Assembly (NCBI GenBank): GCA_964541375.1
Contig: CAZIPT010000001.1
Coordinates: 14,507 to 78,506 of the forward strand
Length of the DNA stretch: 64,000 nucleotides
Direction: 5' to 3'
Origin: an uncultured Eubacteriales bacterium
Lineage (GTDB): Bacteria; Actinomycetota; Coriobacteriia; Anaerosomatales; JAAXUF01
Both the position numbers and the translations under genes were made by a program. The notes under the pieces are model-generated. The model worked only from the letters and a program-made list of their open reading frames with translations, did not search any database and had not been told where the DNA came from. This document shows, piece by piece, positions 398 to 1,801 of the stretch. Numbering within the stretch: the first letter of the stretch is position 1; every line of letters begins with the position of its first letter.

Positions 398-1801
398 CTA
401 CGCCAGTCGAACCTCGCCGAGAGAGCCGTCAGCGCCGACGACAACGATTCGGTGGTGCCCTGTGTCTGCGCCGAGCAGTGTCGTGCCGTCGCTCCACACC
501 CCGGCGGGCTCTCGCAGTTGCCCCTTCTCGCCAGCCGCTCCCGGCCACGGCGCGCATTCTCGGCTGGAGACGTCTACCCGCTTGAGACGGTCGTTGTAGG
601 TGTCGGCAACGGCGAGCGCGCCTGCGTGCGGTGCCACGTCCTCGCAGTGCTGCAGCAGCACGCGGTCGCCCACTCCGTCGCGATCGCCGAAGTCGAACAG
701 GTCGGTGCCCACGACGGTGGTGACCGCATCGTTTGTGGCGAGCCGCACGGCCGACGACTCGCTGTCGGCGAACGCGAGCGACCCGTCAGGCGTGACCGCG
801 ACGCCGGTAGGCTGAGCGAGTAGGGCGTGCAGGGGCGGCCCGTCGGCGATGCTCTCGCCACCGGTCCCGGCGAGCAACGAAAGCGCGCGGGCCTCCGGAT
901 CGAGCCACCAGAGCTGGTGGGTCCCCGCCATCGTGACCGCCAGTCGTCCCCCGGCCGAGGCCAGGCCCCACGGCGAGCGCAACTCCGTCTGACCCGCCGG
1001 CCCGGGCGTCACCGCGTGGGCGCCGAGCTCACCGGTGCCGGCAACACGTTCCCGTTCGCCCGCGCGGAGCTGCCAGATCGCATGTCCCGCGCGGTCGGCG
1101 ACGTAGAGGCTGCCGCCCAGCTCGGCGAGTCCGCGCGGCTCGACGAAGCCGCCATGCTCGGCGATCACGGTCGCGGCGGTCTCGGCGGCGTCCCAAGAAC
1201 ACTCGAGCACCCGGCCGTGACCGGTGTCGGCGATCCAGAGGCGGTCGCCGTCGATGATGGCGCGCGTCGGGTAGCGCAGCGGCCCCTCGTGGCGAGCCAG
1301 CGTGGATGGATACGGGTCGGCTCCGCTGGCGAGCGTGCCCTTGGCCCGGGACTTCTCGGCGATCGACTCGATCTGGGCACCCACTTCCTCGGCGGAGAAC
1401 TCACCTTGCCTGACCAGGGCGATGTAGCCCTCGGGGTCGATGACCACGATCGTCGGCCACGCGCTGACCGCGTAGTCCTTCCAGACGCGGAACTGGCGGT
1501 CGTTGACCACGGGATGCATCACGCCCAAGCGGTCGCACGCCTCGGCGATGCGGTCCGTGAATCGCTCGGTCGGGTACTTGCCGGCTTGGACGCCGATGAC
1601 GGTAAGGCTGTCGGCGAAGCGCTCGTGAAGCTCCCGTACACGCGGGAGCGCATGCATGCAGTTGATTCAACCGTAGGTCCAGAAGTCGAGCAGGACCATC
1701 CTGCCCCGAAGGTCCGAGAGACGGATCGGATCGGTCCCGACCCACTCCAGACCCTCGCGAAACTCCGAAGCGTGTACTCTGCCGCGCAGAAACGGAACCA
1801 T
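398..1801 (-). CDS. thioredoxin-fold / NHL-repeat protein (NHLRC2-like), predicted selenoprotein with in-frame UGA (Sec) at 1669-1667
   Basis: Track ORF 398..1657 and the 3' tail of 1667..2395 are in the same frame and are separated only by TGA. Read-through gives [62 protein letters not shown]. The TGA therefore replaces the first Cys of the family's CINC (CxxC) motif. ATG 1801 has GAGG 4 nt upstream. NHL propeller repeats follow (LWIADTGHGRV, LYVADRAGHAIW, LAFADSESSAVR, LAVADTYNDRLKRV, LGADTGHHRIV). Confidence 0.75.
1630..1649 (-). promoter_or_regulatory. putative bacterial SECIS-like hairpin downstream of the in-frame UGA
   Basis: The mRNA reads UGA-N17-GCUCCCG-CGUGUA-CGGGAGC. This is a perfect 7-bp GC-rich stem with a 6-nt apical loop containing GU. 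The distance from UGA to the loop lies within the range described for bacterial SECIS elements. Confidence 0.55.

Follow-up and report, generated by a model that had tools for sequence, protein, structure and literature searches.

Human NHLRC2 is an essential protein that is mutated in FINCA disease; its CCINC motif lies at the N-terminus of helix α-1 and faces the cleft with the β-propeller (PMC6107167). Bacterial homologs with CC(I/V)NC and no conserved operon have already been reported, and Biterova et al. described a two-domain 'bacterial architecture' (PMC6107167). In the Arabidopsis relative SOQ1, the thioredoxin (Trx)-like Cys pair is reported to be redox-active and to pass its electrons on to the C-terminal domain; methionine-sulfoxide-reductase (Msr) activity is reported for the lumenal domains and assigned to the C-terminal one (preprint 10.1101/2024.11.01.621559). 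A selenocysteine (Sec) form of the NHLRC2/SOQ1 family is mentioned in neither of these two reports. Here we describe a gene of this family in a 64,000-nucleotide stretch of contig CAZIPT010000001.1 from an uncultured Eubacteriales bacterium (GTDB lineage Coriobacteriia); we refer to the whole stretch as the window. The gene lies on the minus strand at 398–1801, and a TGA stands in place of the first Cys codon of its CxxC motif. We consider it highly probable that 1801–398 encodes a single 467-residue selenoprotein, probably cytoplasmic, that the UGA at codon 45 is read as Sec, and that a hairpin just downstream is the Sec insertion sequence (SECIS).

The nearest catalogued selenoproteins are Trx-fold families with a UxxC centre, namely 'Thiol-disulfide isomerase-like protein' (PF13905/cd02966), 'Prx-like thiol:disulfide oxidoreductase' (PF00578) and 'Redoxin family protein' (PF08534) (PMC9312934, PMC13188914). 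The window gene resembles them in the predicted Sec at the N-terminal Cys of CxxC, the candidate bacterial SECIS (bSECIS) downstream in the coding region, the widespread Cys homologs and the Pfam domains. The Sargasso sequences of the two nearest catalogued families read DFETDW-U-TWC and NFWTTW-U-PFC, and the window motif differs from both. At the sequence level the window protein does not fall into the 'Thiol-disulfide isomerase-like' or 'Prx-like' families, with which it shares the superfamily and UxxC alone. The NCBIfam family NF041054, 'ResA-like WAxxUGC motif-containing protein', a curated selenoprotein model, is a TlpA/ResA-like Trx fold with Sec to which the Trx domain of the window protein is weakly similar (E=4.6e-07, 29 bits). 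However, its 300-bit cut-off lies far above that score, its Sec occupies another position, in a UGC rather than a UxxC motif, and it has no NHL propeller. No NCBIfam model reaches its own cut-off for the window protein.

A single reading frame interrupted by one TGA

The TGA at 1667–1669 is the sole interruption of a minus-strand frame of 467 codons that runs from an ATG at 1801–1799 to a TAG at 400–398. The ATG opens 44 codons ahead of the TGA and is preceded, 4 nucleotides (nt) away, by a GAGG at 1806–1809 that may act as a Shine-Dalgarno site. These coordinates agree with the first-pass annotation, made from the sequence alone, which had proposed that the TGA splits one gene with its own upstream start and GAGG. 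The TGA is codon 45, the first position of U-I-N-C, and aligns with the Cys of the Cys-containing relatives. The TGC at 1658–1660 encodes Cys48, the presumed resolving Cys of the UxxC motif, which is invariant in the protein alignment and encoded by TGC or TGT in every relative, whether TGA or a Cys codon stands at the first position. Directly after it comes an internal ATG (1655–1657, Met49), the start that gene callers choose wrongly to give a 419-residue product, and the mechanical list of open reading frames (ORFs) has for this gene 398–1657 alone, starting at that Met.

When Cys is substituted for the stop, Pfam recognizes a Trx-like domain (Thioredoxin_8, TlpA/DipZ-like) at residues 24–138 (1388–1732), through Thioredoxin_8 (PF13905, E=1.8e-13), AhpC-TSA (PF00578) and Redoxin (PF08534), followed by NHL repeats (E=1.7e-19). 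The repeats belong to a six-bladed β-propeller at about residues 170–467 (401–1294), which aligns with the NHLRC2 propeller (6g7w). Translated searches (tblastn) with relatives cover residues 1–467 straight through the TGA.

A bacterial homolog of NHLRC2 and SOQ1

Of the solved structures, SOQ1 from Arabidopsis (lumenal domains; 7djj, E=1.7e-63) and human NHLRC2 (6gc1, E=2e-57) match the protein best. Both matches span Trx domain and propeller and are aligned from residues 11–12 onward, with LDFWTYCCINCMH at the motif; DipZ (2hyx) matches the Trx-like domain (E=2e-22). Judged by these alignments, SOQ1 and NHLRC2 have a bacterial orthologue in the window protein. For a structural view we used the AlphaFold model of P0061, a Cys homolog 57% identical to the window protein, as a stand-in. 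It superposes on 6gc1 and 7djk at a TM-score of 0.83 and has 24 strands after the Trx domain which, together with the alignment across the whole six-bladed NHLRC2 propeller, give six blades; the first-pass annotation had counted five. The Trx part of the model is of low confidence (the per-residue confidence score pLDDT falls below 50 in parts), so active-site geometry was not derived from it.

The window protein has the active-site context LDFWTY-x-C-INC in common with NHLRC2 (6GC1) and SOQ1 (7DJJ/7DJK). Compared with CC(I/V)NC, its G-U-I-N-C has FWTY and I-N-C identical, Gly for the first Cys (human Cys89) and the predicted Sec for the second (human Cys90, the N-terminal Cys of CxxC), giving GUINC. 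Bacterial Cys forms also read GCINC, so the first Cys of CC(I/V)NC is not universal in bacteria. At the position of human Cys89 most bacterial forms have Gly, and some Sec forms from Chloroflexota and Fervidibacter retain a Cys (CUINC or CUVNC). Unlike NHLRC2 and SOQ1, the window protein has no C-terminal β-stranded domain, HAD domain or transmembrane helix: it ends at residue 467 directly after the propeller, and with the β-stranded domain the conserved Cys pair of that domain is absent. It fits the two-domain architecture described for bacteria (PMC6107167). Since the translation reads without a signal-peptide-like hydrophobic stretch at the N-terminus, we assume a cytoplasmic location.

A conserved gene neighbour beyond clade-level synteny was not found in the related loci. 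In one Cys-form locus (L081, 7419–8129 of JGI contig Ga0643911_0000036) the Trx–NHL gene overlaps by 4 nt a downstream gene for a 236-residue Oxidored_molyb protein (PF00174), which suggests co-translation; the pairing is not conserved in the other loci. PF00174 includes the YedY/MsrP-type methionine-sulfoxide reductases, and the pairing would be of interest given the Msr activity reported for SOQ1.

TGA at the cysteine column across several phyla

A protein search of a large public collection returned about 90 relatives of about 419 residues and about 30 full-length relatives of 471–502 residues. The shorter ones are 50–90% identical to the query and cover 88–90% of it, which means that they are cut at the same point; these ~90 public entries bear out the earlier expectation that gene callers start at ATG 1657 and drop the redox centre. 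For the 419-residue ORF of the window itself, the public collection has no exact match. The full-length homologs read LDFWTYG-C-INC, and in the protein alignment the window TGA is the first Cys of their CxxC. This confirms the column that the first-pass annotation had assigned from the FWT..CINC motif, placing the TGA on the nucleophilic Cys (LDFWTYGCINC in Cys orthologues). SOQ1 reads LDFWTYCCINC at the aligned site.

The family has at least 569 genomic homologs. We compared two sets of loci at the DNA level. The first holds 80 relatives from species-representative genomes, and the motif is contained in 79 of them: the codon is TGA in 75 and TGC in 4. The second comes from metagenome contigs and, although the scan was seeded with Cys forms, it still gave mainly TGA forms. 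In genomes and metagenomes together, 136 of 159 loci have TGA (hereafter Sec forms) and 23 have TGC or TGT (Cys forms). The substitute for TGA in the family is Cys every time and never Trp, and the closest relatives of the window gene, up to 90% identical, have the same TGA form. This is a Sec/Cys pair at one column with conserved, coding-like flanks, the pattern that serves as a criterion for selenoproteins.

The Sec forms carry labels of Coriobacteriia or other Actinomycetota (L001–L021) and of Gemmatimonadota (the majority), with further loci labelled Chloroflexia, Dehalococcoidia, Anaerolineae, Candidatus Fervidibacter, Candidatus Dormibacter and Armatimonadota. Three of the TGA genes lie on long sequences: L007 and L018 on the complete chromosomes OY969565.1 and OY969691.1, and L017 on the 981-kb contig CAVXGS010000004.1. 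The Cys forms make up several separate clusters, and some of them (L100, L116, L131, L142 and L155) have Sec forms as their nearest relatives, which indicates repeated switching between Sec and Cys.

Some of these labels do not seem to match the sequences that they accompany. L011, L013 and L016 are titled 'uncultured Eubacteriales bacterium' yet group with the Coriobacteriia-type Sec forms and have the same CGUGUN-type hairpin, and L003, among the first 21 ranks of the Coriobacteriia-type Sec forms, is titled 'Thermoleophilia'. The taxonomy labels of these four metagenome-assembled genomes are probably wrong.

The codons upstream of the TGA behave as coding sequence. Over the 20 codons before the TGA, the window gene differs from 134 relatives 668, 291 and 1291 times at codon positions 1, 2 and 3, respectively, a third-position bias that is a coding signature, and none of the 134 has a stop there. 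The frame is open for at least 38 codons upstream in 134 of 135 sequences, with a start codon 30–70 codons upstream; the exception ends at a contig edge. The first-pass annotation had named decay of these codons in relatives with the same break as a sign of a pseudogene or of a true start at 1657; they are conserved, free of stops and biased toward third-position change. An ATG follows U-I-N-C in just 41 of 135 sequences, the others having mostly ATC, ATT or CTN. Together with the coding-like upstream codons, this excludes for the family a true start located after the TGA.

A covarying hairpin specific to the UGA forms

The hairpin GCUCCCG-CGUGUA-CGGGAGC begins 17 nt 3' of the UGA, at 1630–1649, and is present in the minimum free energy (MFE) fold. 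It comprises the stem GCUCCCG/CGGGAGC and a 6-nt loop at 1642–1637 and lies over codons 51–58 (ALPRVREL). Position, 7-bp stem and apical GU are as the first-pass annotation had given them. The published bSECIS model has an apical loop of 3–9 nt, an upper stem of 4–16 bp, an MFE of at most −7.5 kcal/mol, a G at one of the first two loop positions, with G or U usually next, and a spacing of 16–37 nt between UGA and loop (PMC13188914). With its 7-bp stem, G-U at positions 2–3 of the loop CGUGUA, UGA–loop spacing of 24 nt and folding free energy (ΔG) of −12.6 kcal/mol, the window element agrees with this model on every count, in line with the SECIS-like character first proposed for it. The E. coli fdhF-type SECIS and the bSECISearch consensus likewise place a stem-loop 3' of the UGA within the ORF, with a small loop that has an early G and then U. 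Hairpins of the window type have a UGA–loop spacing of 24–25 nt and a ΔG below −7.5 kcal/mol, as in the bSECIS consensus, and are unrelated to fdhF in sequence.

In a strict search that allowed no bulges, all bSECIS criteria were passed by 124 of 136 TGA sequences, compared with 1 of 23 Cys forms. The element comes in two versions, CUCCCG-CGUGUN-CGGGAG in Coriobacteriia, encoding LPRVRE, and CUNCCGC-AGUU-GCGGNAG in the other phyla, encoding LPQLR-E/K/Q. Covariation was examined over the seven stem pairs in 75 aligned TGA sequences, with slid-partner and shuffle controls. Stem cells are paired in 93.5% of cases versus 36–65% when the partners are slid, and double-sided changes occur in 27 cells versus 6.3 in shuffles, none of 500 shuffles reaching as high. 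One stem pair is CG (45), UA (17), UG (7) or GC (6) and is never unpaired; at this pair the third, synonymous position of a Leu codon changes in step with the first position of the E/K/Q codon. In L073, CCU...AGG replaces CCG...CGG.

The constraint is confined to genes with a UGA. On average 6.56 of 7 stem positions are paired in Sec forms versus about 3 of 7 in Cys forms, the local ΔG is −13.1 versus −6.0 kcal/mol, and the hairpin is absent in the close Cys relatives L081 and L083–L088 (INCRHVQPRLRELERR). Synonymous codon choice follows the same division, with rare codons fixed in the Sec forms. Leu-10 is TTG in 94 of 95 Sec forms and 2 of 21 Cys forms (window background 7%), Arg-9 is CGT in 35 of 37 and 1 of 9 (11%), Arg-11 is CGG in 127 of 128 and 2 of 12 (21%), and Pro-8 is CCG in 131 of 135 and 6 of 22 (48%). 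We regard this codon choice as the cleanest evidence that the hairpin is likely to be functional. Selection on the RNA structure goes with the UGA alone, as a SECIS predicts.

Departures from the common register were seen in a few Sec forms. Six of them (L018, L019, L103, L095, L096 and L097) encode PRVAEL or PRVGEL instead of PRVREL, are unpaired in the common register and fail the strict no-bulge test; a shifted or bulged hairpin (GCUCC-C-GCG UGU CGCGGAGC) seems to substitute. L146 (metagenome contig Ga0136617_10016246), a TGA form reading INCVHILPAVSRLEEK, pairs at only 2 of the 7 stem positions and lacks a hairpin that would fit the bSECIS model. Either an atypical SECIS or a Sec gene in decay could account for this; the nearest relative of L146 is the Cys form L131 (66% identity).

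We also considered a mini-hairpin around the UGA itself (GGUUGA-AUC-AACU), which is present in the MFE fold, and rejected it. The Gly codon in Sec forms is GGC in 78, GGT in 28 and GGG in 19, with Cys forms similar, and the choices of ATC, AAC and TGC merely track genome codon bias.

Genetic code and Sec machinery

Reassignment of UGA to Trp or Gly is ruled out. TGA is an ordinary stop here, ending 13 of the 52 window ORFs and 22% of those of at least 150 residues, and the alternative residue at the site is always Cys; termination of 22–25% of the window ORFs by TGA excludes a reassigned codon.

The window has 65% GC, and TAG is by far its most frequent stop codon: it ends 36 of the 52 ORFs and 71% of those of at least 150 residues, with TGA at 22–25% and TAA at 6–7%. 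The bias is milder in the loci of Coriobacteriia-like relatives, where TAG accounts for 49% and TGA for 47%, and in loci of other phyla TAG accounts for 36%. TAG is usually the rarest stop codon in bacteria, and its dominance in the window looks unusual.

Several observations weigh against Sec at codon 45. We searched the 64-kb window and 1.32 Mb of related flanks for the Sec machinery. There, tRNA-Sec was not found by ARAGORN or Rfam, which returned tRNA-Ser and ordinary tRNAs only, and SelA, SelB and SelD were not found by motif regular expressions or, for SelD, by tblastn with a real SelD from the Sargasso supplement. Pfam on 30 window ORFs likewise shows no SelA, SelB or SelD, and the window has no second selenoprotein gene, the 12 candidates being off-frame, low-complexity artefacts. 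The hairpin taken alone is no better than chance against shuffles of this GC-rich sequence (z = −0.85), so its significance rests only on the comparison with relatives, of which 12 of 136 TGA sequences fail the strict no-bulge test. Finally, human NHLRC2 gave no insulin-reductase activity and its function was called undetermined (PMC6107167), so thiol-disulfide chemistry is not established for the family. As to the missing machinery, sel genes are usually unlinked to selenoprotein genes, and their absence from 64 kb therefore says little. The intact gene and its element point to a genome that would have the capacity to decode Sec, with selA, selB, selC and selD.

Alternative explanations

If the sel genes and tRNA-Sec missing from these 64 kb were missing from the whole genome, the gene could be a relic, of Sec type by descent in a lineage that has lost the Sec trait, and be non-functional or yield a truncated product only. 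The want of a second selenoprotein gene in the window would fit such a loss. We find this improbable, as the gene is fully intact, with a perfect hairpin of −12.6 kcal/mol and a frame open to its normal stop, and the closest relatives retain the same form at up to 90% identity. Slightly less probable still is recoding of the UGA to another residue, whether by read-through with a near-cognate tRNA (Trp or Cys) or by SelB delivering Cys-tRNA(Sec). In favour of such recoding, sequence does not reveal which residue is inserted, and no Sec machinery was found in the window. Nevertheless, the geometry of the hairpin and the G-U of its loop specifically fit the SelB-dependent bSECIS model, the site is a classic UxxC redox site whose alternative in the family is always Cys and never Trp, and it is implausible that a costly UGA and hairpin would be kept just for Cys when TGC variants arise repeatedly.

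The remaining explanations do without recoding. Translation might stop at the UGA and a functional 419-residue protein be made from ATG 1657, with the upstream 44 codons as a small ORF or leader. The ATG that gene callers pick does lie 9 nt 3' of the TGA, but 94 of 135 sequences have no ATG at the equivalent codon and mostly have ATC, ATT or CTN, outside the starts ATG, GTG and TTG, and the conserved TGAATCAACTGC just before ATG 1657 holds no Shine-Dalgarno-like sequence. In addition, the 419-residue form would be without the β-1 strand and the nucleophilic residue of the Trx fold. The upstream codons show selection of a purifying, coding type, and they align with Cys forms at the N-terminus. 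Such a pair of products is highly improbable. A fresh nonsense mutation in a Cys-type gene, or a sequencing or assembly error of TGC, would also look like one in-frame stop in a window with no visible Sec machinery, but the identical TGA recurs across several phyla, in 136 independent assemblies. Its flanks are intact and conserved there, and it is accompanied by a hairpin that Cys forms lack. An error or recent mutation cannot give a recurrent TGA together with conserved flanks and a hairpin, and we give this explanation next to no weight.

Other genes in the window

A gene at 24664–25395 (minus strand) encodes methionine sulfoxide reductase A (MsrA; PF01625, E=8e-50) with an N-terminal extension of ~80 residues. 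On reading the translation, the extension has a hydrophobic, lipobox-like stretch (...LTLIGCSRGG...), and this MsrA may be extracytoplasmic. The gene lies 23 kb from the predicted selenoprotein gene, and no link between the two was established. A second, unrelated NHL-repeat protein of 632 residues is encoded at 30465–32363 (minus strand; PF01436, E=1e-47); it has an IPT/TIG domain and no Trx domain.

A cluster of five genes at 32293–38363 (minus strand) resembles an agmatine deiminase pathway. It encodes an amino-acid permease, a PAD_porph protein of the agmatine deiminase type, another permease, a carbamoyltransferase of the OTCase family and an amino-acid (carbamate) kinase, and is followed by a tRNA-Ser(CGA) at 38694–38786. 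Two long ORFs have no Pfam match at E<=1e-5: 40731–42491 (plus strand, 586 residues, 0.88 GC at third codon positions) and 43685–45289 (minus strand, 534 residues, 0.81).

Annotation and novelty

In public records the Sec forms (P0001–P0056, P0090, P0099 and others) stand as truncated proteins of ~419 residues, under names such as 'sugar lactone lactonase YvrE', 'DNA-binding beta-propeller fold protein YncE', 'alkyl hydroperoxide reductase' and 'hypothetical protein'. This mis-annotation is systematic. Hundreds of entries begin at the Met or a later start after the UGA and so lose the redox centre, and those closest to the window protein are all cut short and generically named; a dedicated model with a Sec exception would correct them.

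NHL, propeller or NHLRC2 is mentioned neither in the 2022 and 2026 reviews (PMC9312934, PMC13188914), nor in deep-Sep, nor in Haft's preprint on overlooked selenoproteins. The Sargasso supplement does not contain the string 'UINC', and neither 'UINC' nor 'FWTY' occurs in those parts of the GOS supplements that were examined. Literature searches that paired NHLRC2 with selenocysteine, or selenoprotein with 'NHL repeat', yielded coincidental co-mentions only, and those on the Sec trait in the phyla concerned were uninformative. The suggestion of the first-pass annotation that no Sec form of the Trx–NHL architecture has been described therefore holds for the searchable literature, but it is weakened by possible cataloguing under a generic name. 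It is possible that the family has already been counted in this way, for example as 'Redoxin family protein', an entry (catalogue examples MBA3499694.1 and HEU0032618.1) that we compared by its table description. We place the window protein in the known UxxC class of Trx-fold selenoproteins, as a member that is new or at least has not been annotated.

Implications for the NHLRC2/SOQ1 family

If codon 45 is read as Sec, the hairpin would recruit SelB–GTP–Sec-tRNA(Sec) to the ribosome while the UGA is in the A site, and Sec insertion would outcompete release factor 2 at UGA-45. The resulting U45-I-N-C48 centre would lie at the start of the Trx α-1 helix, matching Cys90 and Cys93 of the human CCINC. 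The U45 selenolate could then act as the nucleophile that attacks an oxidised substrate, for instance a protein disulfide, a sulfenate or similar, which the propeller would hold. Cys48 would resolve the intermediate as a selenenylsulfide, which a cellular reductant would then reduce. Insertion, catalytic cycle, substrate and location in this scheme are inferred.

The predicted selenoprotein is widespread in soil and sediment bacteria. The Sec forms add it to phyla barely covered by selenoproteome surveys, which are mostly marine or isolate-based, namely Gemmatimonadota, uncultured Coriobacteriia, Chloroflexota, Fervidibacter and Dormibacter. For bSECIS models, the two clade-specific hairpins and their clean compensatory and synonymous-codon signatures make a good natural data set. 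One more UxxC protein would by itself be of moderate interest; breadth across poorly studied phyla and the bearing on the NHLRC2/SOQ1 active site raise it.

Sec/Cys pairs are well established as markers of catalytic redox cysteines. A Sec/Cys pair on the CxxC of the NHLRC2/SOQ1 family is an independent evolutionary argument for redox chemistry at this site. We tentatively propose, at a likelihood somewhat short of even, that these genes form an undescribed family that is the predominant bacterial form of NHLRC2/SOQ1 in several soil and sediment phyla, that the repeated exchange of Sec and Cys marks the residue at human Cys90 as the catalytic redox nucleophile, and that the members of the NHLRC2 family are oxidoreductases whose substrate the propeller holds. 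If so, the bacterial selenoenzyme, with its two domains, would serve as a tractable model in the search for that substrate.

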